Positions 1,986-59,494 of a stretch of 64,000 nt of DNA are shown one piece after another (position 1 is the first letter of the stretch; every line of letters begins with the position of its first letter). Location: positions 3,830 to 67,829 of the forward strand of contig CAISEE010000046.1 in NCBI GenBank assembly GCA_903884345.1. The letters are read 5' to 3'. The notes below the pieces were generated by a model. That model made no database searches and was not told the DNA's origin. It was given only the letters and a program-made list of their open reading frames with translations. The DNA comes from Candidatus Adlerbacteria bacterium (GTDB lineage: Bacteria; Patescibacteriota; Minisyncoccia; Phycocordibacterales; SBAW01). Made by a program: the position numbers and the translations under genes.

Positions 1986-2559
1986 AGAGGCGTTGTGTTA
2001 CCGAGGTCTCGAGGTTGAAGGTAGTCGATGCGGTACCGCTTGAGGACACGACCCCCGACGCGAGGATGGTCACTTTGGGTTGTACCGAGTTGCCCGTAAT
2101 CGGCGACCCGATCAGGTAGAAGCTCAGCTGCGTGATGGCGATCTCGGGCGAGGTCATTGGGAGGTAGTTCCCGGAGTTAATCTGGCGCAAGATCGAGCAT
2201 CGGCTGCCGACCGCACACGTGGTGGCACTCCCGCAGGAGGCTGCGGCGCCGTTGCTCAGGCAGTACGTCACAGTGTCTCCCCCGAAGGCAGTGAAGGTAA
2301 ATCCGTATCCCGGTGTGGCGGTGCAGTCCGGCGAGGTGCCGCCCGAGCCCCCGACACACGCATACGTCTGACCGGTGCGAATCGTGCGAGACATACTATC
2401 GAACGCGGCGCTGAGGTTGTTGACCGCCGAATTGATCGCCTGCGCGCGACGGTTTGCCTCAGAAAGTGCGAGGAGCGCGCCAAGCGCAATCACCATGACC
2501 GTCGCAAAGATGGCGACCGAGACCAATATTTCGATGAGGGTAAATCCGCGATTTTTCAT
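1975..2559 (-). CDS. Minor pseudopilin with prepilin-type N-terminal cleavage/methylation domain
   Basis: Internal start MKNRGFTLIEILVSVAIFATV at 2559, abutting the upstream gene stop at 2561. The track ORF is extended upstream to 2679. Confidence 0.75.
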   Translation of the reverse strand: MKNRGFTLIEILVSVAIFATVMVIALGALLALSEANRRAQAINSAVNNLSAAFDSMSRTIRTGQTYACVGGSGGTSPDCTATPGYGFTFTAFGGDTVTYCLSNGAAASCGSATTCAVGSRCSILRQINSGNYLPMTSPEIAITQLSFYLIGSPITGNSVQPKVTILASGVVSSSGTASTTFNLETSVTQRLYDQ

Positions 2560-2560
2560 A

Positions 2561-3235
2561 TCAACAATTCGTGTAGGCCGCACTGACGGTATCGTTGAGC
2601 GGACACACGTTAATCTCGCCGGTGGTGGTGATTTTGACGAGGCGACTCGAGCTACCGGCGCTGATGCGCACGTAGGCACTGTCGTACGTCTCGGCCAGCT
2701 TCACACCACTCGAGTAGAACGAGGCATACTTGGCGTCCGGGTTGGGACGCTGAAAGATGATCGACGCGTACGTAATGGTCGCAGACCCGGTCGTATCATC
2801 GGCACCGTTACAGCGAAACGTCGACGGTGGCAGGTGCATACACACCTCGCTGACTGAGTAGCCGTTACTGAGGTTAAAGACCTTCACAACCTCGTTCACA
2901 TCCAGGGCGCTGTTGCCGTTGATATCGGCAAAGAGCGTGTAGTTCTGCGTACTGTTCCCAAAATAAAGGCCGTAGGCAGGCACCGCATTTGGCGAGGCGG
3001 CAGAGCGAAGCACGCTGATGCCGTACACCTGCGTCTGGCGCACCGACAGCGAGACCCCGTAGGCAAGGCTGCGCAATACGGTCGAACTATCAAAACTCGA
3101 CTGCCGAAACACGACGAACGCGGTGATGACGGTGATGATTGCCGCGACCGCCAAAAGTTCGATCAGCGTAAACCCCGCCGTAGCCGAGGTCACGCGCCGG
3201 TTAGAAAAGTGAGAGTGATGAGAAAAAATTGACAT
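2561..3235 (-). CDS. Minor pseudopilin with prepilin-type N-terminal cleavage/methylation domain
   Basis: TAGFTLIELLAVAAIITVITAF motif. Start at 3235 (MSIFSHH) or 3259; overlaps the pilD 3' end. Confidence 0.7.
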   Translation of the reverse strand: MSIFSHHSHFSNRRVTSATAGFTLIELLAVAAIITVITAFVVFRQSSFDSSTVLRSLAYGVSLSVRQTQVYGISVLRSAASPNAVPAYGLYFGNSTQNYTLFADINGNSALDVNEVVKVFNLSNGYSVSEVCMHLPPSTFRCNGADDTTGSATITYASIIFQRPNPDAKYASFYSSGVKLAETYDSAYVRISAGSSSRLVKITTTGEINVCPLNDTVSAAYTNC

Positions 3236-3977
3236 GGAAGAAGTAGACGAGAAACGCACCGAACGCGAGAAACGGCGCGAATGGAATCTCGTTCTTCATT
3301 GTAAACCGCTTCCCTCCCGATTTCCACGGTATCGACGAGAACAACATGAGCAAGATGCCGACCAGAGCGCCACTCCACACGGCAACAAGGAGCGCGGTGA
3401 ATCCTGCGCTGAGCCCCAGGAGCCAGCCCAACGAAATCTCAAATGCGCTATCGCCCCACCCCATCCAGCGACCCATCGAGACGAGCGAAAGGAGGAACAG
3501 TGGCAGTGCCAACAGCGGCCCCGCGTAGAGTGCCGCAAACGACGGCGGCCACGCGAGAGCAATTGTCGCAAGACTAAGTAGCACCAACGTGCCCGAACAC
3601 GACCACGGGATGACGGTGTGGCGCATGTCGTAGACCACGATGAAAAGGATCGTCAGCCACACCAAGAGCGACACGGCATAGGCGAGCGGCGTCGGGTGCA
3701 GCACATAGACCCCTACCGAGAGGCCCGCAGCCAACACCTCGACCAAGGGGTACTGCGCCGAGATGCGGGTCTTGCAGTACCTACAGCGACCAAAAAGAAA
3801 GAGCCACGAAAAAATCGGCACGAGGTCGATTGCCGCGAGGGTGTGACCGCAGCGCATGCAGTGCGAGCGCCCACCCATCCCCTGCCCTGTATTGAATCGA
3901 AATGACAGCGCGTTAAGAAAGCTGCCCAATATGGCACCCAGGCCCGCGGCGCAAATTGCCAAGAAGGGGTCGTACAT
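3201..3977 (-). CDS. pilD: Prepilin peptidase (A24 family, PilD)
   Basis: N-terminal CxxC...CxxC zinc motifs (HCMRCGHTL...CRYCKTRI), conserved GWGD, DLVPIFSW, multiple TM segments. Likely start MYDPFLAI at 3977. Confidence 0.85.
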   Translation of the reverse strand: MYDPFLAICAAGLGAILGSFLNALSFRFNTGQGMGGRSHCMRCGHTLAAIDLVPIFSWLFLFGRCRYCKTRISAQYPLVEVLAAGLSVGVYVLHPTPLAYAVSLLVWLTILFIVVYDMRHTVIPWSCSGTLVLLSLATIALAWPPSFAALYAGPLLALPLFLLSLVSMGRWMGWGDSAFEISLGWLLGLSAGFTALLVAVWSGALVGILLMLFSSIPWKSGGKRFTMKNEIPFAPFLAFGAFLVYFFHVNFFSSLSLF

Positions 3978-4495
3978 TAGTTGGTCATGTCGTCGCAGTT
4001 GTCGCCGCTTGAAGCGGGAGTCGTACCGACGCACAAGGGCGCGTTACCATCGAAGGCTGTCGATCCGCTGCAGGCGTAAAACCCGCTGAAGACGCCGGAG
4101 CCGCCCGCGGCAGGCGCATCGACATCGTCGAGCACGTTGGTGTTAGCCTCCATCGCGGCACCGATGTGGTATTTGACCGGCTTGACGCTCGCGCAGGCGC
4201 CGCCGCTGTCGGTTGTGAGCGCATAGTAGTAGTAGTTGGCGTGCGTCAGCGGATCGGTCGGCAAGGTTGCGATGTAGGTCGGCGAGAGCGTCGTCAGTGC
4301 CGTCGGATAGTAGTAGTAGTCGTTGTAAAATTCCTCGAGCGAGAGTTGGATGGTCTTGAGATCGGCCGTGCGGCGCGCATCGCGACCCTTTTGCTTGGAG
4401 ACCGACACCGACACCATCACGATGGTCGAGAGGATGCCGATGATGGCGATGACTACCAAGAGTTCAATGAGCGTAAATCCTTTTTTGGCATTCAT
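3977..4495 (-). CDS. Type IV pilin (prepilin-type N-terminal methylation domain); contains YYYY repeats
   Basis: MNAKKGFTLIELLVVIAIIGIL class III signal; tandem with two other pilin genes. Confidence 0.8.
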   Translation of the reverse strand: MNAKKGFTLIELLVVIAIIGILSTIVMVSVSVSKQKGRDARRTADLKTIQLSLEEFYNDYYYYPTALTTLSPTYIATLPTDPLTHANYYYYALTTDSGGACASVKPVKYHIGAAMEANTNVLDDVDAPAAGGSGVFSGFYACSGSTAFDGNAPLCVGTTPASSGDNCDDMTN

Positions 4496-4518
4496 GTAGA
4501 TGTTTTATGCGAAACTAA

Positions 4519-5022
4519 CTAAAAGCATGCAGCACCAGTGACAGCCGAAGAGGTCGCATCACTGACACACACATCCCCTGAACCATATGACCCCGAACCA
4601 GTTTCGAGCACAATTTTAAATTGCCACGTGTTGAAATACGGCGCAGCGCTGAAGCTCGTCCGAGAGGTGACAGTATAGTTGCACAAACCGGTAGTACTCC
4701 CTGCGCCGCAGGTAGTCGCCGCGACTGCCGTGACTGGATCGCTAAACATCCCCGAGGCTGGATCGGTACAGGAAGAGGCCAGATTAGCACCAGCGTTCGT
4801 GCATCCTACGAACTGGTTGTTTGAGCCGTCCTTAGGATCAAGCGAAATCAATCGCTGCCATTGACGAAGGTCGGAGATACGTTTGGCGTCGCGACTTTTC
4901 ACACGGGAACTATTGAGTGCCGTAATAACAATCGAAGCCAAGATGCCGATGATAGCGATCACGACCAGGAGTTCGATAAGAGTAAAGCCGCGCTGTATAA
5001 AAAGAGGTCTCTTCGAGTTCAT
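4519..5022 (-). CDS. Type IV pilin
   Basis: RGFTLIELLVVIAIIGILASIV; paralog of 5098..5592 with shared C-terminal SGS(L/Y)G(T/S)G...C motifs. Confidence 0.8.
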   Translation of the reverse strand: MNSKRPLFIQRGFTLIELLVVIAIIGILASIVITALNSSRVKSRDAKRISDLRQWQRLISLDPKDGSNNQFVGCTNAGANLASSCTDPASGMFSDPVTAVAATTCGAGSTTGLCNYTVTSRTSFSAAPYFNTWQFKIVLETGSGSYGSGDVCVSDATSSAVTGAACF

Positions 5023-5045
5023 GCGATAATCATCCCACAGAAACG

Positions 5046-5078
5046 AGAAATCCCCAACCTTCGGTTGGGGATTTCTGC
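5046..5078 (-). terminator. Hairpin between tandem pilin genes (terminator/attenuator)
   Basis: Perfect inverted repeat atccccaacc-ttcg-ggttggggat directly after the pilin gene 5098..5592, flanked by T/A-rich stretches. Confidence 0.6.
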
Positions 5079-5097
5079 TTTTGTGAAGCGAGAGGGA

Positions 5098-5592
5098 TTA
5101 CTTGCAGTTTGCGCCCGAGGCAATCGACGAAGTCGCGTCGCCGAGACAGATAACTCCCGTACCCAACGAACCGGAACCGGTCTCGAGCCAATCACGAACT
5201 GTATAGCCCAAATAGGTGCCGCTGTTTGAGAACGCTGGCGCACCACCGCCTGCGGCGCTGGCGACCGAGTAGTTACATTGCGAGGTCGGTCCGGCGGAGC
5301 AAGCAGTTGGAGACGTACCCGGATCAGCGAAGCCCGTGCCATTCGGGTCCGTACATGCTGAGACGAGTGCATTGGCGGTCGTACAACCGCTGAAGTTCGC
5401 CAACCCGTTCGCGTTGGTGCTCATCGCAACCGCGCGCTGGAACTGCTGGAGGTCGGCGACGCGCTTTGCATCGCGGCCTTTGGCGCGTGCGCTGTTAAGG
5501 GAGACGAGCACGATCGAGGCCAAAATGCCGATGATAGCGATCACGACCAGGAGTTCGATAAGGGTGAAACCGCGTGTAAACGTTTTGCGCAT
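5098..5592 (-). CDS. pilA: Type IV pilin (probable major pilin PilA)
   Basis: MRKTFTRGFTLIELLVVIAIIGILASIVLV; first pilin after pilC and followed by a hairpin, a typical major-pilin arrangement. Confidence 0.8.
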   Translation of the reverse strand: MRKTFTRGFTLIELLVVIAIIGILASIVLVSLNSARAKGRDAKRVADLQQFQRAVAMSTNANGLANFSGCTTANALVSACTDPNGTGFADPGTSPTACSAGPTSQCNYSVASAAGGGAPAFSNSGTYLGYTVRDWLETGSGSLGTGVICLGDATSSIASGANCK

Positions 5593-5710
5593 AAAATGAC
5601 GTTTAGATTAATTATCTGCCATTGATTAATAATTTGTTGCAGACTAGCCCTAGTATACCCTGGTACCTCCTTCCCCATTCCTTCATATGTGGATAACCAC
5701 ATTGCCGCAG

Positions 5711-20979: not shown

Positions 20980-22846
20980 CTACTCGACCGACAAGCCGTC
21001 TTTAACGCGTTTTGGCGCGATCTCCAGCGCTTTTTTAGCCCAACGTCGAAGCTGGGAGAGCGGCGCCATTTCGGGAGGCAGGTCGCGCAGCGGTATCTCG
21101 AAACTCGACACGAGCTCGTGATTCTCGAAGATCTGAACCTGTGCCACCGGCTTGTCGATCGGCACATGCGCCCGGCGAATCCGGTCGATGTGCACGAAGA
21201 CGGCGGTTTGCGGCATCCCCCTCCAGTCATCCAAGTAGTGATAGAACGCGAGCGGGACGTTACCGTCCATACTGGCGGCCCCGGCACATAGGAAAACGCG
21301 CATGACCGGCGTGTGGACGAAGGGCGTCTTCTCGTCGTGGTTGATGATGTGCGCGAAGGTGTCCACTTTTTCCTTTGCCTCGGCATCATCCACGATCTTT
21401 CGACCCATCCCCCACACCGCCATCGCCGACGTAAACAGCACCATGCTGCCAAGCGGGATGAGGCCCAACGGGCTGTCGAGCAGTTTGGAGTAGGCACCGA
21501 GCGTGAGGATGATGATGAACACCCCGCACACATCGATCAGCCACACGTAGCGACATCCGTGTTCGCGATAGTACCGGCGAACGAGCGTGTAGGTAATGCT
21601 CATCCCCGTCCCCACCGCCATCCCGTACGCGAACGTCATCGCATCAGGGTCGGGGAAGATCAGCACGAAACTGATCGCCCCAATAAGGAGGAACGTGTTG
21701 ATGGTCGGCACGTAGACCTGAGACGCATTCTCGTCGGAAGTGCAAGTGACCTTCGCGCGGGGTGCGAGCCCTAGTCGCACCGCTTGCGCCACGAGACTGA
21801 AGCAACCCGTGAAGAGCGCCTGCGAGGCGATGAACGCCGCCGCCACCGCGAGCGCTACCATGAACGTGAGCACGTACTCATTGTCCTGGTAGAGCGCGAA
21901 GAACGGCGACTCCTTGTAACCGTAGCCTGCAAGCAATGCACCCTGCCCCGCGTAGTTGACGATGAGGCCGCACATGACGAGCGTGCACGCAGCCATGATG
22001 GGGCCGCGACCGAAGTGCCCCATGTCTGCATAGAGCGCCTCGCCGCCGGTTACCGCCAAGAGCACCGTACCGAACACGGCGAGCGAGGCGGTCACCGTCG
22101 CACCAAAAAATGGAGAGCGATTTCCACCACGGCAGATCGTGCGTCAGGAGACTCCACATGCAGTCGAAGCGAAGCGGTGCCTGCAGGATGCCCGGGTGCG
22201 ACATAATCTGCGGCATACCGCCCCACACCAGCATGAAGAACCACCCCAGCATAATCGGGCCGAACATCGTGCCGATCTTGCTACTGCCCTTCTTCTGAAT
22301 CCAGGCAAGCACGATGAGTGCCAGGACAGCGAGCGCCTTGGCGATCGAGTGGCCGATCATGAGACGTTGCGCCTCGACTCCCGTGTCGGTCGCGGGGAGC
22401 GCGAGCCATCCTTCGTCGGTGCCGTAGTGCTGCACCATGACGGTAAGCGCCACGAACGCCGGGACACTGAGGAGCCCCCACCATGCCGACAGAATCGAAA
22501 TGGCCGGGGTGATCTGACCGTCCGAGATGACGCCCGAGATGCCGACGCGCGCCCACCACTTGTCGATTTTACGTTTGGATATGCTGTAGAGCACGGTGAT
22601 GCCACCGTCCCCTTGCTGATTGATTCGCAGCACGACCGCACAGTAAAACCCGACGATGCCAAAGAGTGTCACGAAGATGAGGCCGACTGCCCCGTAGACA
22701 TGCTCCTTGGTGTAGAAGCTGGGGTCGGGCCCCAGCATGGCGGTTAAGACATAGAGCGGTGAGGTGCCGATGTCGCCAAAGACGACGCCGAGCGATTGAA
22801 ACGCGAGCGTAAAGAACGCCGCGAGACATACTGTCTTGTGCGACAT
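20980..22846 (-). pseudogene. kup: KUP/HAK/KT potassium uptake transporter, disrupted by frameshift(s)
   Basis: N-terminal ORF (22846..~22200) has GDIGTSPLYV and PIMLGWFF. C-terminal ORF (22095..20980) has [16 protein letters not shown] and the rest of Kup. The frames join at the A6 run 22105..22110 (ALHFF|GATVTAS) if one base is added. Confidence 0.8.
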
Positions 22847-25778: not shown

Positions 25779-26972
25779 CTACCGAATCGCTTTCGCCACC
25801 GCCTCGGCGATGCCCTTCTCGAACGGCCCGGGGATGATTTTTTGTTTGGTGGGCTTCGGCACCAGTGCCGCCAAATTCTTGGCTGCTTTGAGTTTCATCG
25901 CGTCGGTAATGGCCGACACTTTGTGATCGAGCGCCCCGCGAAAGACGCCCGGGAAGACGAGCGAGTTATTGATCTGATTGGGATAGTCGGAGCGCCCCGA
26001 TGCCACGATTGCCGCCCCTGCCGCCAGTGCCGCCTCGGGAGAAATTTCGGGCGTGGGATTAGCCAGCGCGAAGATGATCGCATCCTTAGCCATGAGCGCG
26101 ATATGCTCGCTTGAAATAAGGTTCGGCCCCGAGACCCCGATGACGACGTCGGCCTCGTTGAGTGCCGCCGCAAGGTCGCCCGAGATGCCGCGCGGATTGG
26201 TCATGCTTGCGAGCTCGAGTTTGTGTTCGGCAAGCCCCGTGCGTGCCTCGTCGAGGATGCCGTGGCTATCGAGCACAATGACGTCTTGAATACCTGCAAG
26301 CACAAGGAGTTTTGCAATCGCCGTCCCTGCCGCCCCGGCACCAAGGATGACGATGCGCAGCCCCGCGAATTTCTTGCCCACAACTTTTGCTGCATTAATG
26401 AGCGCTGCCGTCGCCGCGATCGCGGTGCCGTGCTGATCGTCGTGCATGACCGGGATTGCGAGCCGCTCCTTGATGCGCGCCTCGATCGCAAAGCAGTTGG
26501 GAGCCGCGAAGTCCTCGAGGTTGATGCCGCCGAAGCCGGGCGCAAGCGCACACACCGTCTCGACGATCTGGTCGACGTTTTGCGTGTCGAGCACAATCGG
26601 GAAGGCGTCGACATCGCCGAAGGTTTTAAAAAGCGCGCACTTCCCCTCCATGACCGGGAGCGCCCCATAGGGCCCGATGTTGCCAAGCCCCAAGACCGCC
26701 GAGCCGTCCGAGATGACCGCGACCATCCGCCCTTTTATGGTGTAGTCGCGCGCCGCCTTCATCTGCTCGTGCTCCGAACCTTTAGCGACGAGGAGCGACA
26801 CTGCGGCCACCCCCGGCGTGTAGACGAGCGAAAGGTCGTCGCGGGACTTTACGGCCATGGTAGGCGTGATGCGAATCTTCCCCTGGAGTTTTTTATGGAG
26901 CGCGATGGCAAGCTTCGCGGTGTCGGGTTTTCGAACTGCTGTTTTGATCGGTTTTTTGGGTGTTTTTTTCAT
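25779..26972 (-). CDS. NAD(P)-dependent malic enzyme (short form)
   Basis: LSLVYTPGVAAVSL and GINLEDFAAPNCF; Rossmann GAGAAGTAIAKLL; 397 aa. Confidence 0.85.
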   Translation of the reverse strand: MKKTPKKPIKTAVRKPDTAKLAIALHKKLQGKIRITPTMAVKSRDDLSLVYTPGVAAVSLLVAKGSEHEQMKAARDYTIKGRMVAVISDGSAVLGLGNIGPYGALPVMEGKCALFKTFGDVDAFPIVLDTQNVDQIVETVCALAPGFGGINLEDFAAPNCFAIEARIKERLAIPVMHDDQHGTAIAATAALINAAKVVGKKFAGLRIVILGAGAAGTAIAKLLVLAGIQDVIVLDSHGILDEARTGLAEHKLELASMTNPRGISGDLAAALNEADVVIGVSGPNLISSEHIALMAKDAIIFALANPTPEISPEAALAAGAAIVASGRSDYPNQINNSLVFPGVFRGALDHKVSAITDAMKLKAAKNLAALVPKPTKQKIIPGPFEKGIAEAVAKAIR

Positions 26973-27010
26973 GCCCCCAGTGTAGCAGAATTACTTGGTA
27001 TCATGGAGGG

Positions 27011-29269
27011 ATGGAACTGACCGACTCGGTAACGCAGTACTTCCGCCTTGTGCCCTCGCAAAAAGACGCGCTCCACAAGCTCGGCATCCGCACTGTGCGC
27101 GACCTCCTCTTTCACTTCCCCTTTCGCTATGAGGCCGCCGGCGAGCAATCGACCGTCGCGTCGCTGGAGCCCGGCCAAGAAATCACCCTGGTGGGTGTGC
27201 TTGAAAAGCTAGCGGCGAAAAAATTGTGGCACAGCAAAATGCCCGCGACCGAAGGGTTCTTGCGCGACCAAACCGGCCGCATCAAAGTGCGCTGGTTTAA
27301 TCAACCCTACATCGCCAAAATGTACGGCGAGGGTGCGCTCGTGCAGGCCGTCGGAAAAGTTGCCGGCAAACCCGGCAACCTGTATTTGGCTAATCCAAAA
27401 CTCGAACGAGTGACCTTGAGCGAGAGCGGCCTCTTCGAAAAAACAGAACCCGTCGTGCAGTTGAGCGAGCAGCGACATCCCGCAGAGAACGGTCTGGCCG
27501 AGCGCAGCGAGGAGACCCGAGGACCTTCTCGGAGGGATGGCGCTGCGAGCGATTCTTCATCGAGTGCAGATAAACTTTTCGCGCAGTACCCCGAGAGTCG
27601 CGGTATCACGTCGCTGTGGTTTCGCCACGCAATCGAGCGATTGATCGCCGCCGATATTCTCGACGCAATCGAAGACCCCATCCCCGACGACATCCTCGCG
27701 CGCTACCATCTGCCCTCGCAAAAAGCGGCGCTCCTGTATATGCACGTACCCAAGGCACTGAAAGACGCCGAGGCTGCGCGCAAACGATTTTCCTTCGAGG
27801 AGATTTTTTTGATCCAACTTGCGCGACAAAAAGAGCGCCTCGCGGGATTGCGCGAAATAAGTTTCGCCGTCGACGCACCGCAACGCGACGTCGACTCATT
27901 CGTCTCATCCTTCCCCTTCACCGCAACCCCGGCGCAGACGCGCGCCATCAAAGCCATCCTCACCGACATGCGAACAGGGCACCCGATGTCGCGCCTGCTT
28001 GAGGGCGATGTGGGCTCGGGCAAAACAGCGGTTGCCGCGACCGCCGCCTACGCCGCCGTGCGCACCAAACCCGAGGGCCAAAAATCGGGCACACTCCAGG
28101 TCGCCTACATGGCGCCGACCGAAATCTTGGCCAAGCAACACTTCGAGTCGTTCATCAATTACTTCGAACACTTCCCCATCAACATCGGCCTCATCACCGG
28201 GAGCGGCTGCTACAAATTTCCCTCCAAAGTGAATCGCGAAAAAGCGACGCCGATCTCGCGTGCACAACTCCTCAAGTGGGTGGCCTCGGGCGAGATCGCT
28301 ATCCTCATCGGCACGCACGCGCTCATCGAGGCGTCGGTCCAATTCAAACACCTGGGGCTCGTGGTCATCGACGAACAACATCGCTTCGGCACCAACCAAC
28401 GCCGCAAGCTCGCGCGCAAAGAGGCACGCCTGCCGCACCTCCTCTCGATGACGGCCACCCCCATCCCGCGGACGCTCGCACTCACGATCTACGGCGACCT
28501 TGACCTCACCCTCCTTGACCAAATGCCGCGCGGGCGCAAACCCATCATCACCGAAGTGGTGAAACCCGAGGGGCGCGCGGTGGCCTACGAGCGCATTCGC
28601 GAAGAACTGAGAAACGGCCGCCAAGCCTACGTCATTTGCCCGCGCATCGACGAGCCCGACCCCGAGAAGGCCTTCGCGCTCATGGCAAAGTCGGTCACCG
28701 CCGAGGCGAAACGACTAAAGAAAGATGTCTTCCCCGAATACACCATCGACATTCTCCACAGCAAAATGAAACCCGCCGAGAAAGACGAGGTGATGGCGCG
28801 CTTCGCCGCGCACGAGGTCGACATCCTGGTTGCAACCTCGGTGGTCGAAGTTGGGGTCAACGTCCCCAACGCGACGATGATCTTCATCGAGGGTGCCGAG
28901 CGCTTCGGCCTCTCGCAGCTCCACCAATTGCGCGGCCGCGTCGTGCGCAGCAATCACCAGGCGTACTGCTTCGTCTGCCCCGAGTCGCGCGGCGAGCACA
29001 CGCTCGCGCGCCTCAAAGCCCTAGTGACAGCAAAAAACGGATTCGAATTAGCCGAGCAAGACCTCTTGCAGCGCGGCCCGGGCGAACTGTCGGGTCGCAA
29101 ACAGTGGGGCATCTCAGACGTCGGTATGGAAGCATTAAAGAATCTGAAATTGGTCGAAGCCGCCCGCACCGAGGCGTTGGCGCTCCTTAAAAAAGATGAG
29201 TCACTCGCCAAGCATCCGCGCTTGGCCGCACACCTCGCCAATCAGATGCGCGCGCTTCATTTCGAGTAG
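27011..29269 (+). CDS. recG: ATP-dependent DNA helicase RecG
   Basis: Wedge domain followed by helicase motifs (GDVGSGKTAVA, DEQHRFG, TATPIPRTL). ATG at 27011 after GGAGGG. Confidence 0.9.
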   Translation: MELTDSVTQYFRLVPSQKDALHKLGIRTVRDLLFHFPFRYEAAGEQSTVASLEPGQEITLVGVLEKLAAKKLWHSKMPATEGFLRDQTGRIKVRWFNQPYIAKMYGEGALVQAVGKVAGKPGNLYLANPKLERVTLSESGLFEKTEPVVQLSEQRHPAENGLAERSEETRGPSRRDGAASDSSSSADKLFAQYPESRGITSLWFRHAIERLIAADILDAIEDPIPDDILARYHLPSQKAALLYMHVPKALKDAEAARKRFSFEEIFLIQLARQKERLAGLREISFAVDAPQRDVDSFVSSFPFTATPAQTRAIKAILTDMRTGHPMSRLLEGDVGSGKTAVAATAAYAAVRTKPEGQKSGTLQVAYMAPTEILAKQHFESFINYFEHFPINIGLITGSGCYKFPSKVNREKATPISRAQLLKWVASGEIAILIGTHALIEASVQFKHLGLVVIDEQHRFGTNQRRKLARKEARLPHLLSMTATPIPRTLALTIYGDLDLTLLDQMPRGRKPIITEVVKPEGRAVAYERIREELRNGRQAYVICPRIDEPDPEKAFALMAKSVTAEAKRLKKDVFPEYTIDILHSKMKPAEKDEVMARFAAHEVDILVATSVVEVGVNVPNATMIFIEGAERFGLSQLHQLRGRVVRSNHQAYCFVCPESRGEHTLARLKALVTAKNGFELAEQDLLQRGPGELSGRKQWGISDVGMEALKNLKLVEAARTEALALLKKDESLAKHPRLAAHLANQMRALHFE

Positions 29270-29293
29270 CGAGTGCGGTATAGTCCAGAGCGA

Positions 29294-29365
29294 GGGCGCA
29301 TAGCTCAGCGGTAGAGCAGCCGTCTTATACACGGCCGGTCGTAGGTTCGATCCCTACTGCGCCCA
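29294..29365 (+). tRNA. tRNA with anticodon UAU (predicted tRNA-Ile decoding AUA)
   Basis: Acceptor GGGCGCA/TGCGCCC; D-arm GCTC-AGCGGTA-GAGC; anticodon stem GCCGT/ACGGC with loop CTTATAC; T-arm GTAGG-TTCGATC-CCTAC. Confidence 0.75.
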
Positions 29366-29445
29366 CAAAGATTGCATGCCGCCGACGAATGCGGTATGGT
29401 CAGCCACAGAATAGTCTCCTCAACACACAGAATGGAAAGTTCCCG

Positions 29446-30468
29446 ATGTTGTACCGCCTCATTCTTCGCCCCATCCTCTTCTTGTTCGATGCGGAATGGG
29501 TGCACGACATGACGATCGCGCTCTGCGGCTGGCTCCAAAAAAGTCCCGGTGCGCTCCGCGTTCTTTCGTGGTACTTCCACCCCGTCTATGCACCGGTTGA
29601 GGTTATGGGAATCACATTGCCCAACCGAGTCATGCTCGCCGCCGGGTTCGACAAGGCCGGTAAGATTGCAAACATCATGCAAGCGCTTGGGCTTGGTAGT
29701 GGAGTCGTCGGGTCGGTACCACTGCGTGCCCAGCCCGGGAATCCAAAACCGCGACTGAAGCGCGTACCCAGACGGGACGATCTGCTCAATCACATGGGCT
29801 GCAACTCACCGGGCGCCTTTGCGGTGCGAGATAACCTCGAGGAAGCGAGACGAGGCGGGAGCATTCCCGTCGGCATCTCACTGACATGTAACACCGATAC
29901 CTTGCACGGGCAGGAGGCGACGAATCTGCTTGAGTCGCTCCGGATTCTCTATCTTCTGGGCGACTTCTTCGAAGTAAACATCAGTTGCCGCAACACGCCG
30001 GCGCACCGCTACCTGCAAAATCCGTTAGTTATTGAAAAGGTTTTGCGGGCGCTCGTCGAGCGTGAAAAGGAACTTGCTCACCGACACGGCGTGCAACATA
30101 AGCCCATCTTGCTCAAGCTCGCACCCGACCTTAGCGATGAGCAATTGCTCGATTGCGTTGAGGCGGCTGTACGCGCCGACATCGACGGAGTGGTACTGGG
30201 CAACACGTCGAAGAACCCCCACAGCGTCGACGCGGTGGGCGCACTAAGCGGGCACAGTCTCTTCGACCGCATGCTTGAGATGGTGCGCCTGGTCCACACA
30301 ACGTACCCGACACTCACGATCATTGCGTGCGGTGGCATCGACTCACCCGAGCGGGCAGAGCTGGCACTAGCTGCAGGCGCCGCCCTGGTGCAAATCTTCA
30401 CCGCGCTCGTGTACAAAGGCCCCGGCATCATCCGTCGCATCGCCCATCGCCTTGCACACTATCGCTAA
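29446..30468 (+). CDS. pyrD: Dihydroorotate dehydrogenase (quinone), class 2
   Basis: Class-2 N-terminal extension, conserved Ser-type catalytic region, C-terminal IIACGGI motif. Confidence 0.85.
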   Translation: MLYRLILRPILFLFDAEWVHDMTIALCGWLQKSPGALRVLSWYFHPVYAPVEVMGITLPNRVMLAAGFDKAGKIANIMQALGLGSGVVGSVPLRAQPGNPKPRLKRVPRRDDLLNHMGCNSPGAFAVRDNLEEARRGGSIPVGISLTCNTDTLHGQEATNLLESLRILYLLGDFFEVNISCRNTPAHRYLQNPLVIEKVLRALVEREKELAHRHGVQHKPILLKLAPDLSDEQLLDCVEAAVRADIDGVVLGNTSKNPHSVDAVGALSGHSLFDRMLEMVRLVHTTYPTLTIIACGGIDSPERAELALAAGAALVQIFTALVYKGPGIIRRIAHRLAHYR

Positions 30469-30530: not shown

Positions 30531-32480
<1,950 letters not shown>

Positions 32481-32564
32481 GAGAGTTACATAGTACCATT
32501 TTGACAAGTTCAGGACAAAAAAAGGCCGTTGCGGTATTGTACAGGTACGCAGTATATAAATAGT

Positions 32565-33008
32565 ATGAATTTGATCGAACACAAAAAGGCGCACCTCAAC
32601 TTCGAGCTCATCAAAGAGTTCGAGGCCGGGATCGAACTCTTGGGCCACGAGGTCAAAACCCTGCGCAGTCGCCACGGCAAGATCGAGGGCGCACACGTCA
32701 TCGTCCGCGGTGGCGAAGCCTTTTTGGTGGGCGCGTCGCTCCCACCCTACCAGCAGACCAACACCCCCGGCGACTACGACCCCGACCGCACGCGTCGCCT
32801 CTTGCTGACCAAGCAGGAGCTGGCTGAGTTGGCCGAATATGAACAGCAGAAGGGCTTGACAATCATCCCTATTTCTGTCTATAATAAAGGTGCGAAGTTG
32901 AAGGTACGCATCGCGGTCGCCCGCGGTCGTAAGAAGTTCGATAAGCGCGCGGTCCTCAAAGAACGCGATGTGAAACGAGAGATCGACCGCACCTTGAAAA
33001 ATCAATAA
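32565..33008 (+). CDS. smpB: SsrA-binding protein SmpB
   Basis: AHLNFELIKEFEAGIELLGHEVKTLRSRHGKIEGAHV...DPDRTRRLLLTKQELAEL. Confidence 0.9.
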   Translation: MNLIEHKKAHLNFELIKEFEAGIELLGHEVKTLRSRHGKIEGAHVIVRGGEAFLVGASLPPYQQTNTPGDYDPDRTRRLLLTKQELAELAEYEQQKGLTIIPISVYNKGAKLKVRIAVARGRKKFDKRAVLKERDVKREIDRTLKNQ

Positions 33009-33399: not shown

Positions 33400-33780
33400 G
33401 GGGATGCCAGGCATAGACAATGGGACAGTTCGTCGGATGCGCGAAGTAGAAGACCAGATCTTCTTAAAAAGCTGGAAAACCTACCTGCAGCCAAAACTGC
33501 ATCGCCGTATTTCGCGGCGAACGACTTCCAGTTCGCGCTCGCGCGAGCCTAACGTCGCACTCTCTCCTTCTCGCCTGAGGCTGGAGACCGGGTGTTATAT
33601 ATCAGGACTATAGTCGCGAATCGTCCGCCTTGCGACGCGACCGAACATTAGAGGCTGCAATCGACGCTAGTTTCGTTCGCTTCATATAGCGTCGGTTAAA
33701 GAAACAAAAAAGCGCGACTACACTCCGTAGAAGCTCCGATAGCTCCCCGTTGCACGCGGGTTCAACTCCCGCCATCTCCA
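33400..33780 (+). ncRNA. ssrA: tmRNA (ssrA)
   Basis: 3' end ACGCGGGTTCAACTCCCGCCATCTCCA nearly identical to E. coli tmRNA 3' end. 5' GGGGATG pairs with CATCTCC including a G3:U pair. Internal tag-like frame GCG AAC GAC TTC CAG TTC GCG CTC GCG CGA GCC TAA (ANDFQFALARA*); adjacent to smpB. Confidence 0.8.
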
Positions 33781-33929
33781 CTCGACTCGCCTGCCTTTAT
33801 GGCAGACTCGCTCGTGGCAAGCCACCGATTCGGAATAGCCGACTTGGTGGCTTTTCACGTTGGCGAATCGAGTGTCCCGAGCGAAGTCGAGGGACTTGAT
33901 TTGAATACTAGGCGCGCGAAAATAGAGAC

Positions 33930-34942: not shown

Positions 34943-35368
34943 CTACTCCCGTACGAAGTGGGTGGTCTCGTGGTAGGCGTCGTAATTTACCGTGAGCTCT
35001 TCGCCCGCTTTGATGTCGCGCAGCGCGACGAAAGTCTCGCCCCGGTCGTGCGTCACCATGTTGGGAGTCTTCGAGTGATTCAAAAAGTAATTTTTGGTAA
35101 GCGCGTCCATGCCGTAGCTGGGGACGTGGTAGACGCCATCTTGAAGTGCGCAGAAGTCGCGCACCAACTCTTTTGCCGCCTCGTCGCATGGGTACAAGTC
35201 GAGCTCCTCTTTTTTTATCTTGAGTAACGTGCCAAACGGGTCGGCATGTTCAAGCGGGTCGGTGCCCTGGGGTATGGTGCGGATGGCGACGAGCCCCACG
35301 CCGTGTGTCGTGACCCCGAGGCGGCAATAAATTTTCGTGAGTGATTCGAGGAATTCCTTCTTGCGCAT
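34943..35368 (-). CDS. SET-domain protein (putative protein-lysine methyltransferase)
   Basis: FLNHSKTPN (NHSxxPN) and RDIKAGEELTVNYD SET core motifs; 141 aa. Confidence 0.75.
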   Translation of the reverse strand: MRKKEFLESLTKIYCRLGVTTHGVGLVAIRTIPQGTDPLEHADPFGTLLKIKKEELDLYPCDEAAKELVRDFCALQDGVYHVPSYGMDALTKNYFLNHSKTPNMVTHDRGETFVALRDIKAGEELTVNYDAYHETTHFVRE

Positions 35369-52113: not shown

Positions 52114-52557
52114 TTACTCGGCAATCGAACCGCCCGCCTTCTCGATCTTCTCTTTAGCCGAGCCTGAAACGACGCAGCCGGCGATGATGAACTTCTTGGT
52201 GACCTCACCGTTGCCGAGAATCTTCACGGCCGGAGTGATGGTCTTGCGTGCGCGAACGAGGCCGCGCTCGACCAAGACTGCCGGCGAGATGGTCTCCCCC
52301 GCCTTGAAGGCGACCTCAAGCGAGCTCACATTCACGACCGCAGGCTTCTCCTGGATGCTGTAGAGGCCCTGGATGCCGCGTCCGCGCATCTTCGGAAGTT
52401 TCTTGAGCTTCTCGCGGACGTCTGGGCGAATCGAGTGACCGGCGCGCGCCTTCTGACCCTTGGTACCACGACCCGAGGTCTTGCCGCGAATACCGCCACG
52501 ACCGACGCGCTTGGCCGATTTCGTTGCTGTCTTTGGTTTGAGTTCGTGGAGTTGCAT
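52114..52557 (-). CDS. rplO: 50S ribosomal protein L15
   Basis: MQLHELKPKTATKSAKRVGRGGIRGKTSGRGTKGQKAR. Confidence 0.9.
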   Translation of the reverse strand: MQLHELKPKTATKSAKRVGRGGIRGKTSGRGTKGQKARAGHSIRPDVREKLKKLPKMRGRGIQGLYSIQEKPAVVNVSSLEVAFKAGETISPAVLVERGLVRARKTITPAVKILGNGEVTKKFIIAGCVVSGSAKEKIEKAGGSIAE

Positions 52558-52562
52558 AAAAG

Positions 52563-53174
52563 TTAGGCTTTGAGCTGCTTAAGCGCTTCGATTGCGGCGC
52601 GCGCGTTGTTAAGACCGTTCTTGCTGCCCGAGTGGATCTTGGCCACCACATTGGTGACGCCACCCAATTCGAGGACCGGGCGAACCGACGAGCCGGCGAC
52701 GAGACCGCGGCCGCGAGCCGGCATGAGCGAGACGCGTGCGGCGCAGTACTTGGCGTCGACCTCGTGTGCGATCGAGGTGTCTTTGGTGAGGTTGATGGTG
52801 ATCATGTGCTTCTTGGCATCGCGGACCGCCTTGTCGATTGCAAGCGTCGTGTCCCCTGCTTTGCCGAGACCCACACCGACTTTGCCCTTCTTGTTGCCGA
52901 TGATGATTGCAACCGAGAATGAGAAGCGGCGACCGCCGGCGACCACACGCGCCACGCGGCGGATGTTGATCATCTTTTGGTCAAACTCGCTTTTCGCGCG
53001 CGGAGGGCGCGGACCGCGATTGCCGCCAGGGCCACCTGGGCGACCGCCGGGGCGACCAGCACCGCCGCGAGCACCGCGTCCGCGCGGCGAAAACGCCGGC
53101 TTTGCCGAAGGAGCAGCGGCAGTGGTTGCCTCTGGTGCCTGTCCTGCGGTGATGTTGTTTTCGATGTCAGCCAT
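52563..53174 (-). CDS. rpsE: 30S ribosomal protein S5 (with Arg/Gly/Pro-rich N-terminal extension)
   Basis: MINIRRVARVVAGGRRFSFSVAIIIGNKKGKVGVGLGKA core; ~60-aa RG-rich extension. Confidence 0.9.
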   Translation of the reverse strand: MADIENNITAGQAPEATTAAAPSAKPAFSPRGRGARGGAGRPGGRPGGPGGNRGPRPPRAKSEFDQKMINIRRVARVVAGGRRFSFSVAIIIGNKKGKVGVGLGKAGDTTLAIDKAVRDAKKHMITINLTKDTSIAHEVDAKYCAARVSLMPARGRGLVAGSSVRPVLELGGVTNVVAKIHSGSKNGLNNARAAIEALKQLKA

Positions 53175-53184
53175 GAATAGATAG

Positions 53185-53538
53185 TTAGAATTTCAAACCG
53201 CCCTCGCGAGCCGCATCAGCCAATACAGCGACCCGTCCGGTGTAGCGGAACCCGCCGCGGTCAAAGACCACCGTCGTGATGCCGAGCGCCGCCGCCTTCT
53301 TGGCGAGTTCGACGCCGAGCGCCTTTGCGGCATCGGTCTTCTTCATGCCCTTGGCAGCCTCTTTGGTCGAGCCTGCGACCAGGGTGACGCGCTTTGCGTC
53401 ATCGATGATCTGCGCGTGCATGTAGCGGTTCGATTTGTAGACCGACAGGCGCGGCTGCGTGGCCGAGCCGATGACCTGGGTGCGGATACGTGCGTGACGT
53501 CGTTCGCGGCCGATTCGTTTGTTGTTGGTAGTAGTCAT
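53185..53538 (-). CDS. rplR: 50S ribosomal protein L18
   Basis: RHARIRTQVIGSATQPRLSVYKSNRYMHAQIID. Confidence 0.9.
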   Translation of the reverse strand: MTTTNNKRIGRERRHARIRTQVIGSATQPRLSVYKSNRYMHAQIIDDAKRVTLVAGSTKEAAKGMKKTDAAKALGVELAKKAAALGITTVVFDRGGFRYTGRVAVLADAAREGGLKF

Positions 53539-53546
53539 AACGGTGT

Positions 53547-54080
53547 TTATGAGGTCTTCTTACCCTGCTTGCGGCGGATAACTTCCCCATCGTAGCGGAT
53601 GCCCTTGCCTTTGTACGGCTCCGGCTTCTTCTGCGCGCGGACGTTTGCGGCAAACTGGCCGACCGCCTCTTTATCAAAACCGGTGATGGTGAGTGCGTTC
53701 TTCTCGGCGACGACAGTGAGCCCTTCGGGGATCGCCATCTTGACCGGGTGCGAGAAGCCGAGCGAGAGGTTGAGCACCTTGCCCTGAACATCCCACTTGA
53801 AGCCGACGCCTTCGACGAGGAGCTTCTTGCTGTAACCCTTGGTCACGCCTTCGAGCATGTTGCGTACGTGCGAGGCGTAGGTGCCGACGGTTGCGCGTGA
53901 CTCGATGGTCGACCCCTTGGCCGAGACCTGGACACCCTCTGGAGTGACCTCGACAGAGACGAGGCGGTTGGCTGCGCGGGTGAGCGTTCCCTTCGGACCC
54001 TTGACCGTGATAAGGCCGCCCGAAACGGTGAGTTCGGTTTGTGCGGGGAGGCTGATTGGGCGTTTAGCAAGACGTGACAT
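53547..54080 (-). CDS. rplF: 50S ribosomal protein L6
   Basis: MSRLAKRPISLPAQTELTVSGGLITVKGPKGTL. Confidence 0.9.
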   Translation of the reverse strand: MSRLAKRPISLPAQTELTVSGGLITVKGPKGTLTRAANRLVSVEVTPEGVQVSAKGSTIESRATVGTYASHVRNMLEGVTKGYSKKLLVEGVGFKWDVQGKVLNLSLGFSHPVKMAIPEGLTVVAEKNALTITGFDKEAVGQFAANVRAQKKPEPYKGKGIRYDGEVIRRKQGKKTS

Positions 54081-54086
54081 AATGAT

Positions 54087-54476
54087 TTACCAAATTTCGA
54101 ACAGAGTCTCGCCGCCGACGCGCTGCTCGCGAGCTTCTTTACCAGTAAGGATGCCTGCCGGGGTCGAGAGGAGCAGAAGGCCGTGACCACGCTTGACCGG
54201 CTGGATGTCGCGCACACCGGCGTAGAGGCGGCGTGAGGGCTTCGAGAGGCGCTTGACGCCCGAGATGACCGGCTTGCCGTCTTTGTAGGCAAGAGCGACG
54301 ATAAGCGAGGCGCCGGCCTTGGACTTCTTGTCGATCGAGGCGACATAGCCCTCGCGGACCAAGACCTCGGCGATGGCACGCTTCATCTGCGAGTACGGCA
54401 AGGTCAAAGTCTCCTTACCAGCGTTGCTGGCGTTCTTGAGACGAATAATGAAATCTGCTGTTGGGTCGGTTACCAT
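54087..54476 (-). CDS. rpsH: 30S ribosomal protein S8
   Basis: [45 protein letters not shown]. Confidence 0.9.
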
Positions 54477-54655
54477 GATGATTTTCGGATGCCCGGAATA
54501 AGACCTTCGTTAGCGGCTTCGCGGAAGCAGGTGCGGCACATACCGAAGTCGCGCATAAACGAGCGAGCGCGGCCGCAGCGGAAACAGCGGTTAACCGCGC
54601 GCGAAGAGAACTTCGGCGTCTTATTCGATCTTGCTACTGTAGATTTTTTTGCCAT
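54470..54655 (-). CDS. rpsZ: 30S ribosomal protein S14 type Z (zinc-binding)
   Basis: 61 aa; [23 protein letters not shown] (C4 zinc ribbon). Confidence 0.9.
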
Positions 54656-54690
54656 TTAGAAAAGAAAAGCCCGAAAAAAGGGCTTCGCAG
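54656..54690 (-). promoter_or_regulatory. Leader hairpin plus U-tract directly abutting rpsZ AUG (terminator-like attenuator/operator)
   Basis: On the minus strand: GAAGCCC-ttttttc-GGGCTT-TTCTTTTCTAA-ATG; no SD sequence. Confidence 0.55.
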
Positions 54691-54719
54691 ATAGTACGCG
54701 AAAGCGGTTAGAAAGTCAA
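54691..54719 (-). promoter_or_regulatory. Near-consensus sigma-70 promoter for rpsZ-secY operon
   Basis: On the minus strand: TTGACT-17 nt-TACTAT, ~7 nt upstream of the hairpin leader. Confidence 0.55.
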
Positions 54720-54771
54720 CAAACTCGCCTGCGCTTCATATAGTTTCCATACCCTGCCCTGTGGAAACCCT

Positions 54772-55515
54772 ATGGTTGCGAGTGGTGGTACAATGGAAAT
54801 ATATATGATTGAAATAGACTCACTGCACAAACAGATTGACGGGCGAACCATCGTGTCCAACCTCTCACTTTCGATACAAAAGGGCTCTGTCTTCGGCTTT
54901 TTGGGCCCCAACGGAGCGGGCAAGACGACCACGATGAAGATTCTGGTGGGACTCAACCACCCCTCCTCGGGGCGGGTCACCATCGACGGGCACGCCCCGA
55001 GCGAGACCCTGACCCGCGAGAAACTGGGCTTTATGCCCGAGGCACCGTACTTCTACGAGCACCTCACGGGGTTGGAGTTCCTGCGCTTTTGCGGCGAGCT
55101 CTTTGCCCGGCCCCGCGGCGAGGCCGCCTACGAGGCACTGCTGCGCAAAGTCGGCATCTTCGAGGCCAAAGACCAGCGCATCACCACCTACTCCAAGGGC
55201 ATGAAGCAGCGCCTGGGGTTTGCGCAGGCCCTGGTGAATGACCCCGAGTACGTCTTCCTCGACGAGCCCTTGGATGGCCTTGACCCCATCGGCCGCCGGG
55301 CGCTTAAATCGATGATCCGGGAACTCAAGCACGACGGGCGCACGGTCTTCTTTAACTCTCACATCCTCTTTGACACCGAGGAGCTGTGCGACGAGATCGG
55401 CATCCTCAACCGCGGCTCCCTCCTGTTTGCCGGCCCTTTGGGCGAGTTTACCCGCGGCCTGTCGCTGGAAGAGCAGTTCGTCGCCACTATTGAGCAACTC
55501 GAAGTAACTGCATGA
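54772..55515 (+). CDS. ABC transporter ATP-binding protein
   Basis: Walker A GPNGAGKTTT, Q-loop, signature-like YSKGMKQRL, Walker B VFLDEPLDGLD. Alternative start at 54793. Confidence 0.85.
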   Translation: MVASGGTMEIYMIEIDSLHKQIDGRTIVSNLSLSIQKGSVFGFLGPNGAGKTTTMKILVGLNHPSSGRVTIDGHAPSETLTREKLGFMPEAPYFYEHLTGLEFLRFCGELFARPRGEAAYEALLRKVGIFEAKDQRITTYSKGMKQRLGFAQALVNDPEYVFLDEPLDGLDPIGRRALKSMIRELKHDGRTVFFNSHILFDTEELCDEIGILNRGSLLFAGPLGEFTRGLSLEEQFVATIEQLEVTA

Positions 55516-56288
55516 AACACTCATTTATCCGCGACACCCTGGTCGTCGCCAAAAATACGTTCAAAGAAAGCGTGCGCGACAAGGTCTTTTACGCCCTCTT
55601 CGCCTTCGCCTTCATCACCATCACCTTTACCCTCTTCTTGGGTTCGATTTCGCTGAGCGAAGACGTCCACGTGATTCGAAGCCTCGGGATGGCCGGCATC
55701 TACCTCTTTAGCATCCTCATCACGGTCTTTTTGGGCACCGCGCTCATGTACAAAGAGATCGAGCGCCGCACGCTCTACTTCATCCTCTCAAAACCAGTCA
55801 CCCACGCGCAGGTCGTGGTCGGCAAGTTCCTCGGGCTCTTTGCGAGTGTCGCACTCTCGACCCTGGGTATGACGGCAGTCTACCTCGCGACCGTGCTCTA
55901 CGCGGGCGGCGGGTTTGATCGATTGGCACTTCTGGCCGTCTTCTTCGAGATTCTCGAGCTCGGCCTCCTCATCGCGCTCTCAATCTTCTTCTCGACCTTC
56001 GCCAAGCCCCTTGCGGGCGCGGTCTACGCCATCCTCGTCATCTACATCGGCCACTCGCTGGGGATGCTCGCTGCGGTCTCCGAAAAGAGCGGCGTTCTCG
56101 CGCACCGCTTCATCCAAGTGCTCTACTACCTTTTGCCCAACCTCGAGAAATTTAACATACGCGATTTGGTCCTCTACAACCAGGCACCCTCGCTCTCTGC
56201 CACCCTGGCGGTCGTCCTCTACGCCGCGGTCTACGCGACGATACTCCTGTGCGGCGGGACACTACTTCTTAAGCGACGCGAATTTTAG
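55512..56288 (+). CDS. ABC-2 family transporter permease
   Basis: 258 aa, six TM helices; overlaps the ATPase stop (ATGA). Confidence 0.75.
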   Translation: MKHSFIRDTLVVAKNTFKESVRDKVFYALFAFAFITITFTLFLGSISLSEDVHVIRSLGMAGIYLFSILITVFLGTALMYKEIERRTLYFILSKPVTHAQVVVGKFLGLFASVALSTLGMTAVYLATVLYAGGGFDRLALLAVFFEILELGLLIALSIFFSTFAKPLAGAVYAILVIYIGHSLGMLAAVSEKSGVLAHRFIQVLYYLLPNLEKFNIRDLVLYNQAPSLSATLAVVLYAAVYATILLCGGTLLLKRREF

Positions 56289-56290
56289 CC

Positions 56291-57121: not shown

Positions 57122-57130
57122 CATTCCTGC

Positions 57131-58621: not shown

Positions 58622-58709
58622 CGCTTCATCTTTTCATGTACAAGCACCTCCTGGTTGAGTAAAATGATGCGCAGACGGACTGCGATACCACAACAAACAA
58701 AGGGAAGGA

Positions 58710-59489: not shown

Positions 59490-59494
59490 AGAGT

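Follow-up and report, generated by a model that had tools for sequence, protein, structure and literature searches.

A 72-nt tRNA gene lies on the forward strand at positions 29294-29365 of a 64,000-nt stretch of contig CAISEE010000046.1 from Candidatus Adlerbacteria (assembly GCA_903884345.1), and this whole 64-kb stretch is hereafter called the window. The gene carries the anticodon UAU and is best understood as a functional minor tRNA-Ile(UAU) that reads the AUA codon, most likely replacing rather than supplementing the couple formed by tRNA-Ile2(CAU) and the lysidine-forming enzyme TilS. In the tRNAscan-SE nomenclature its class is named tRNA-Ile3(UAU). The gene and its decoding elements are the following.

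29294-29365 (+), tRNA-Ile(UAU) gene of 72 nt, supported by ARAGORN, Rfam RF00005, the minimum-free-energy fold and covariation
29324-29330 (+), anticodon loop CUUAUAC (C32 U33 U34 A35 U36 A37 C38), read from the sequence
29326-29328 (+), anticodon TAT (UAU), the complement of AUA, from ARAGORN and the sequence

Both the tRNA and the reading of its loop CTTATAC as a UAU anticodon had been proposed in a first-pass annotation, and both were recovered by independent programs. ARAGORN called a tRNA-Ile(tat) at 29294-29366, with the anticodon at tRNA position 33 in a numbering where position 17 is absent, and assigned no alternative anticodon or structure. RF00005 matched 29294-29365 from end to end (71.4 bits for a gathering score of 29, E=1.3e-13, zero non-canonical pairs), all 21 pairs are standard and the minimum-free-energy fold of the gene is a cloverleaf of -30.8 kcal/mol. 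The acceptor stem GGGCGCA/TGCGCCC is followed by TA and the D arm GCTC-AGCGGTA-GAGC, then by A and the anticodon arm GCCGT-CTTATAC-ACGGC, a variable loop of 5 nt (CGGTC), the T arm GTAGG-TTCGATC-CCTAC and the discriminator A73 at 29365. CCA is absent from the gene sequence and CAAA stands directly 3' of the tRNA. Position 34 is T (29326), as it is in 132/132 distinct tRNA-Ile(tat) homologues called by ARAGORN, so that the gene does not have the CAU anticodon of tRNA-Ile2.

Selection on the tRNA was assessed with homologues from a genome scan in which each GTDB species was represented once; its search pattern TAGCTCAGNGGTAGAGCNNNNNNCTYATAC fixed the D arm and C38. The covariation set comprised 84 distinct 72-nt homologues among the matches listed; the D stem and the anticodon loop, being fixed by the pattern, are uninformative for covariation. 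Across the 84 homologues, 99.9% of the cells are standard-paired. Double-sided changes were observed 399 times versus 104.6 ± 7.5 after shuffling, none of the shuffles being as high (0/500), and compensatory changes were found in 15/17 variable pairs. When the partner columns were slid, pairing fell to 29-49%. These substitution patterns show that the gene is selected as a tRNA. Because only two tRNAs were called by ARAGORN in the 64-kb window, tRNA-Ile(tat) included, and because about 100 homologues display compensatory covariation, the presence at 29294-29365 of a genuine conserved tRNA with a UAU anticodon is far beyond chance.

The host is a member of the Patescibacteria, also known as the candidate phyla radiation (CPR), and is of Parcubacteria/Paceibacteria type. 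The window contains a cluster of type IV pilus genes and an operon for ribosomal proteins that is devoid of L30, S5 being directly followed by L15, which is a hallmark of the CPR. Window proteins have identical copies in ENA metagenome assemblies and in the NCBI metagenome-assembled genome (MAG) GCA_903951795.1. The nearest RecG and FtsH homologues, 70-83% identical, belong to MAGs that bear the labels Minisyncoccia, Candidatus Adlerbacteria and Paceibacterota, and Adlerbacteria are placed in the Parcubacteria group of Patescibacteria in the NCBI taxonomy.

In the genome scan, at least 119 stretches were matched by the pattern, 102 with TAT and 17 with CAT among the matches listed, and ARAGORN identified at least 100 tRNA-Ile(tat) genes among them. 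The listed TAT matches belong nearly all to Patescibacteria MAGs, with labels that include Patescibacteria, Paceibacterota, Parcubacteria and Levyi-, Woese-, Uhr-, Kerfeld-, Andersen-, Berkel-, Adler-, Nomura-, Harrison- and Sungii-bacteria. All the listed CAT matches (17/17) are from other phyla such as Dormibacteria, Omnitrophota, Coprothermobacterota and others. The labels 'uncultured Gammaproteobacteria' and 'uncultured Candidatus Saccharibacteria' borne by TPA_asm entries (loci L013, L014, L023, L042 and others) were not trusted. In these four loci the tRNA(UAU) gene is Parcubacteria-like; FtsH of L014 and L042 is up to 80% identical to the window protein and RecG of L042 70%.

A second sample was gathered independently of the tRNA sequence and consisted of 80 metagenome loci (667 kb) chosen only by homology to RecG (50-83% identity), whose gene precedes the tRNA in the window. 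A tRNA(UAU) was present in 52/80 of them and lay within 600 nt of the 3' end of recG in 27/80; many of the loci that are devoid of it end at or soon after recG. The tRNA-Ile(UAU) is the norm, not an oddity, in the Patescibacteria lineage of the host. The rarity that the first-pass annotation had ascribed to such genes holds in the literature, where they are reported in 9 species (PMC3575796) and 17 genomes (PMC8450103) and still appear as 'rare cases' in a 2026 preprint, but it does not hold in this lineage.

The tRNAs of the recG-anchored loci have varied D loops. Their anticodon loop is CUUAUAC in 51/52 cases (43 distinct sequences) and CUUAUAU in the remaining one (1/52), which rules out that C38 is an artefact of a search pattern that required it. 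When distinct tRNA(UAU) genes of both samples were pooled, C32 was found in 132/132 and C38 in 130/132; the other tRNAs of the same loci mostly have A38. The C32/C38 combination therefore appears as a signature of the tRNA(UAU) family. In the L019 locus (2349-2496), an intact tRNA-Ile(UAU), the sole A38 copy of the whole set, is preceded at a distance of 36 nt by the 5' half of another, truncated tRNA-Ile(UAU) that has C38. Another observation concerns tRNA-Ser. ARAGORN reported a tRNA-Ser with an ACU anticodon (A34) near tRNA-Ser(GCU) in several Patescibacteria loci, namely the metagenome loci L147, L150, L160, L166, L178, L179 and L202 as well as L073 (998-1083); for bacteria, A34 in a tRNA-Ser would be out of the ordinary.

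The strongest evidence for a replacement of tRNA-Ile2(CAU) comes from published tRNA counts that had remained uninterpreted until now. Supplementary Table 2 of 'Group I introns in tRNA genes of Patescibacteria' (PMC13011429), a paper with no mention of UAU, TilS or lysidine, tallies the tRNAs of 95 complete Patescibacteria genomes by amino acid, with Ile counts by tRNAscan-SE and an ARAGORN 'Met' column that holds all CAU tRNAs, naming being by anticodon. Tabulation of these counts gave at least two Ile tRNAs in 45/95 genomes. Two CAU tRNAs or fewer are present in 40/45 of these genomes, which leaves room for the initiator and the elongator Met only, and the same holds for 14/15 two-Ile genomes of the Paceibacteria. 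Closed Paceibacteria genomes with two Ile and two CAU tRNAs include GCA_016699245.1, GCA_016699085.1 and GCA_017134395.1. In genomes with a single Ile tRNA, three or more CAU tRNAs are found without exception (50/50; Fisher p=1e-21). The two-Ile state prevails in Dojkabacteria (7/7), Microgenomatia (12/12), ABY1 (4/4) and Paceibacteria (15/20) and also occurs in WWE3, UBA1384 and Doudnabacteria, and the canonical state in Saccharimonadia (32/36) and in all JAEDAM01 and Kazan-3B-28 genomes. The reciprocal Ile and CAU counts point to a replacement of tRNA-Ile2(CAU), the substrate of TilS. Taken as a base rate, they make it very likely that a Patescibacteria genome with tRNA(UAU) has no tRNA-Ile2(CAU). 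As tRNA-Ile2(CAU) is the only known TilS substrate, its loss would render TilS dispensable, and the host genome would be devoid of both tilS and tRNA-Ile2(CAU).

Direct evidence, from searches around the gene, is limited. A six-frame scan for the PP-loop motif SGGxDS retrieved no protein in the 64-kb window, and TilS is not among the Pfam-annotated window genes. Nor was an SGGxDS protein found in the 10 kb past each window end, which encode LigA, GatC and GatA on one side and L2, L23, L4 and L3 on the other. Within the 119 listed genome loci, the motif was present in four non-CPR loci only and in none of the CPR loci. In the 667 kb of recG-anchored loci there was no CAU tRNA and no TilS-like open reading frame (ORF), the only SGGxDS match being a chance one of 31 aa. 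The CAU tRNAs that do occur in CPR loci with tRNA(UAU) are of the initiator (CGCGGG...) or elongator-Met type only. In other bacteria, ftsH often follows tilS. In the window ftsH is preceded by smpB, whereas it follows tilS in the L071 and L096 loci.

A tRNA with a UAU anticodon has to be charged by a competent isoleucyl-tRNA synthetase (IleRS), the criterion being either a type-2 enzyme or a type-1 enzyme with Arg at the position of E. coli W905. IleRS is not encoded in the 64-kb window. In a Paceibacteria MAG (L087), it is found 1.5 kb from tRNA(UAU) at 2009-5644 (-), with a TIGR00392 (ileS) score of 853 bits. Its best solved relatives are the eukaryotic cytoplasmic IleRS 8wnd, 9w01 and 7d5c (~740 bits) and IleRS2 of P. 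megaterium 8c8u (686), while the type-1 enzymes 1ffy, 8c9e and E. coli 8wnf reach 288, 300 and 254 bits. By these scores, the L087 enzyme classifies as a type-2 (eukaryote-like) IleRS, so that this kind of enzyme is present in at least one close relative of the host. It also carries, in the middle of the enzyme, a histidine-phosphatase/phosphoglycerate-mutase-like domain of ~180 aa (residues ~512-690). UAU is charged poorly by E. coli IleRS, the Mycoplasma mobile enzyme needs Arg865, and the tilS-less Bifidobacterium and Neorickettsia have a eukaryote-type IleRS (PMC3575796), a combination that the type-2 IleRS of L087 matches.

Several points weigh against a replacement in the host. The search for tilS reached only ~84 kb of the genome of the organism, so that tilS and tRNA-Ile2(CAU) could lie elsewhere, and the PP-loop negative over ~1.4 Mb of CPR flanks is weakly informative, about 1-2 matches being expected by chance if all the genomes had one. 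The published table holds no anticodons, and the second Ile tRNA is taken to be UAU from the distribution seen in the genome scan, with whose classes those of the two-Ile genomes are consistent. The type of IleRS was read in one relative (L087) only. C38 occupies the place of A38, an identity element for E. coli IleRS. Finally, 5/45 two-Ile genomes also have three CAT tRNAs, so coexistence does occur. This last point, together with the share of the genome that was inspected, is what favours a redundant decoder, that is, a host that has kept tilS and tRNA-Ile2(CAU) and uses tRNA-Ile(UAU) as a second AUA reader. Other bacteria are documented to have both systems, and Taniguchi et al. 2013 (PMC3575796) inferred this state in Lactobacillus casei/plantarum, Cyanothece PCC 7424 and Ferrimonas. 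Such a redundancy is unlikely here, as there is no room for a third CAT tRNA in the great majority of two-Ile genomes, Paceibacteria included, no CAU tRNA or TilS-like ORF in the 667 kb of recG-anchored loci, and only initiator or elongator Met among the CAU tRNAs that neighbour tRNA(UAU) in the CPR. Replacement of the tRNA-Ile2(CAU)/TilS system is thus the preferred reading.

The first-pass annotation had also put forward isoleucine as the amino acid and AUA as the codon, and suggested looking at AUA usage. In 81 putative genes picked by codon-position GC, AUA amounts to 69/17,664 window codons (3.9 per 1000), and 6% of the Ile codons are AUA. To find what AUA means, the window RecG, FtsH, malic enzyme and sigma factor were aligned by tblastn to sequences from relatives. 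Opposite the ATA codons of these relatives stands Ile in 62%, Val in 16%, Leu in 15% and Met in 1% of cases (n=379). The ATC and ATT profiles are indistinguishable from that of ATA, and ATG faces Met in 54%. These alignments show that AUA is isoleucine in the lineage, and since it means Ile and is used, the lineage needs an AUA decoder.

As to the tRNA itself, the identity set of E. coli tRNA-Ile, reportedly established by Nureki et al. in 1994, comprises A35, U36, A37, A38, A73, C4-G69, U12-A23 and C29-G41. The window tRNA has A35, U36, A37, A73, C4-G69, U12-A23 and C29-G41, and C instead of A at position 38; these elements describe recognition by a type-1 IleRS and are not necessarily those of a type-2 enzyme. 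Among the matches listed, C4-G69 is found in 73/84 and C29-G41 in 43/84 homologues. The GGGCG start of the acceptor stem is identical in the CPR tRNA-Ile(GAU) genes of loci L036 and L100. A non-Ile identity, for instance charging with Met as in some mitochondria together with a reassignment of AUA in the lineage, could draw on C38 and on the fact that code changes are known in the CPR, such as that of UGA in Gracilibacteria. It is very improbable, given the fit of the acceptor stem, D stem and A73 with Ile elements and with CPR tRNA-Ile(GAU), and reassignment of AUA was rejected from the codon alignments, where ATA behaves as ATC and ATT do.

The surroundings of the tRNA contain the following features.

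26960-29269 (+), recG, with Pfam DEAD, Helicase_C, RecG_wedge and RecG_dom3_C, its 3' end 24 nt before the tRNA
29279-29284 (+), putative -10-like hexamer TATAGT, from the sequence, 9 nt 5' of the tRNA and within the 24-nt spacer between recG and the tRNA
29446-30468 (+), pyrD, 3' of the tRNA, between the tRNA and ftsH
30531-32501, end approximate (-), ftsH, with Pfam Peptidase_M41, AAA and FtsH_ext, convergent with the tRNA
32565-33008 (+), smpB, upstream of ftsH, where no tilS lies
33400-33783 (+), tmRNA, Rfam RF00023 at 88.7 bits, beside smpB

The tmRNA was missed by ARAGORN despite its tmRNA search and may be divergent. An ORF at 29305-29793 (-) that overlaps the tRNA was rejected as spurious from its wrong codon-position GC pattern. 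Among the matches listed, recG stands beside tRNA(UAU) in 18/100 genome loci, and ftsH shares the 8-kb block of the tRNA in 27/100, 12 of which have it no more than 300 nt away. The position of the tRNA beside recG/ftsH is kept in relatives with a RecG that is only 50-80% identical. In loci L096 (3060-6540), L071 (2230-5245), L022 and L108, from Coprothermobacterota and Dormibacteria, a TilS-like gene adjoins a tRNA(CAU) that shares the D arm and C38 and has the loop CUCAUAC, and the order in L096 and L071 is tRNA-Ile2 - tilS - ftsH. The linkage to ftsH of both tRNA-Ile2(CAU)-tilS and the CPR tRNA-Ile(UAU) hints at a shared ancestral neighbourhood.

The hexamer TATAGT is the candidate for a promoter of the tRNA's own, from which the leader would be very short, with a predicted length of 0-3 nt. 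In homologous loci, an enrichment of TAnnnT boxes is seen 15-26 nt 5' of the tRNA, and a strict sigma-70 consensus scan of 29000-29700 detected no promoter. TATAGT is included in the 12-mer TGCGGTATAGTC, of which an exact second copy (as TGCGGTATGGTC) occurs at 29390, before pyrD. The exact 12-mer TGCGGTATRGTC thus flanks the tRNA at 29274-29285 and 29390-29401, ~0.02 exact copies being expected by chance according to our own estimate. A third copy with 2 mismatches is located at 32530-32541, before smpB, and the 12-mer sits in a longer match, CGAnTGCGGTATrGTC. The flanking 12-mer is probably a -10-type promoter motif of the organism rather than an insertion scar.

That the tRNA is non-functional, be it a pseudogene, a recent acquisition from a mobile element or phage, or an assembly artefact, could be argued from the non-encoded CCA and from the flanking 12-mer, which in principle could mark an insertion, but it is very improbable: the pseudo-tRNA status envisaged in the first-pass annotation is at odds with the full-length, high-scoring Rfam match, the 21/21 standard pairs and the covarying homologues, half of the homologues likewise have no encoded CCA, the GC content of the gene is similar to that of its surroundings (~58-59% for the window), and the 12-mer is more simply a repeated -10-like motif with a similar copy before smpB. 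The conserved recG/ftsH position, taken with the covariation, rules out that the gene is a pseudogene or came recently from a mobile element.

Elsewhere in the window, the ribosomal-protein operon (52114-63941, -) is split between L5 (60569-61108) and S8 (54087-54476). The interruption of ~6 kb consists of opposite-strand genes (54772-60031, +), among them an ABC transporter. In L123, just outside the window, inserted genes also part S19 from L2. A Kup-type K+ transporter (20980-22846, -) is present as two overlapping ORFs, which match the N-terminal (21878-22846) and C-terminal (20980-22095) parts of Pfam K_trans; such a split points to a frameshift, to a pseudogene or to an error of assembly. 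A SET-domain protein (34943-35368, -; PF00856, E=1e-10) is conserved in the relatives L010 and L088, SET domains being uncommon in bacteria.

The way in which the tRNA would work can be outlined from these elements. Transcription would take place from the recG-pyrD intergenic region, probably from the -10-like box, and CCA would be added post-transcriptionally by an enzyme. The tRNA would then be charged with isoleucine by IleRS, presumably of type 2. U34 would pair with the third-position A of AUA, being either unmodified or modified so as to restrict pairing to A. Positions 32 and 38 reportedly set decoding strength (work of Olejniczak, Ledoux and Uhlenbeck), and the invariant C32/C38 signature may keep U34 off AUG.

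The window tRNA adds a case to the lysidine-independent tRNA-Ile(UAU) class already documented for Mycoplasma mobile and relatives, Bifidobacterium, Neorickettsia and two archaea, and it is the ordinary AUA decoder for its lineage. One member is tRNA-Ile2(UAU) of M. mobile (Taniguchi et al. 2013, PMC3575796), where a genomic UAU tRNA, a dedicated minor tRNA-Ile, likewise reads AUA beside tRNA-Ile(GAU) in a small genome without tilS and tRNA-Ile(CAU). Its U34 was shown to be unmodified and binds AUA strongly and AUG weakly (PMC3575796). However, M. mobile relies on a type-1 IleRS adapted by Arg865, whereas the Patescibacteria relative L087 has a type-2 enzyme. The Mollicutes lineage is unrelated to Patescibacteria, and in the latter the trait spans whole classes rather than single species. 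In Bifidobacterium and Neorickettsia (PMC3575796; PMC8450103), tRNA-Ile(UAU) replaces tRNA-Ile2(CAU) and goes with a eukaryote-type IleRS, as in L087. These are other phyla, in which the loss of tilS is documented, whereas for the host it is presumed.

Outside bacteria, the tRNA-Ile3(UAU) of Nanoarchaeum equitans and Korarchaeum cryptofilum, as cited in PMC8450103, offers a parallel in ultra-small organisms of episymbiotic type in which UAU replaced a modified cytidine. These are archaea, and the system lost there was agmatidine/TiaS, not lysidine/TilS. The eukaryotic cytoplasmic minor tRNA-Ile(UAU) also reads AUA with a UAU-type anticodon and is served by a type-2 IleRS. Its anticodon is pseudoU-A-pseudoU, positions 34 and 36 being pseudouridylated.

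A laboratory counterpart is the tRNA-Ile1(UAU) suppressor of a Bacillus subtilis tilS deletion (Fabret 2011; Kohrer 2013, PMC3919564), which reads AUA strongly and AUG weakly with an unmodified U34. Because it does so on ordinary ribosomes, replacement is mechanistically feasible. This suppressor is a mutant of tRNA-Ile1(GAU), whereas the CPR tRNA(UAU) differs from the CPR tRNA-Ile(GAU) in the D loop, the anticodon arm and position 38. The CPR tRNA(UAU) looks closer to the C38 tRNA(CAU) genes found beside tilS in other phyla. With the canonical tRNA-Ile2(CAU)/TilS system it has in common the AUA-specific task, the D arm TAGCTCAGYGGTAGAGC, C32, the 5-nt variable loop and A73. The difference lies in position 34, C in the canonical tRNA and U in the window tRNA, which leaves TilS nothing to modify.

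TilS is regarded as essential, and tilS is conserved in ~98% of annotated bacterial genomes (PMC12514573). A full-text literature search retrieved no publication that links lysidine-independent AUA decoding to Patescibacteria or the CPR. The published counts nevertheless imply that ~40/95 complete Patescibacteria genomes swapped tRNA-Ile2(CAU) for tRNA(UAU). A broader scenario can be proposed tentatively, with the odds rather against it in its full extent: many Patescibacteria (ABY1, Dojkabacteria, Microgenomatia, most Paceibacteria, WWE3 and the host) would have dropped TilS and lysidine and would rely on a vertically inherited tRNA-Ile(UAU) with a type-2 IleRS, C32/C38 being an adaptation against misreading of AUG. 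Were tilS confirmed to be lost, the view that lysidine is universal would have to be revised, and tilS-targeted antibacterials as well as 'universal marker' gene sets would be expected to miss these lineages. Many independent natural C32/C38 sequences would then be at hand for studying how U34 discriminates A from G. Should the broader scenario be true, a substantial part of bacterial diversity, and not a few curiosities, would decode AUA without lysidine.

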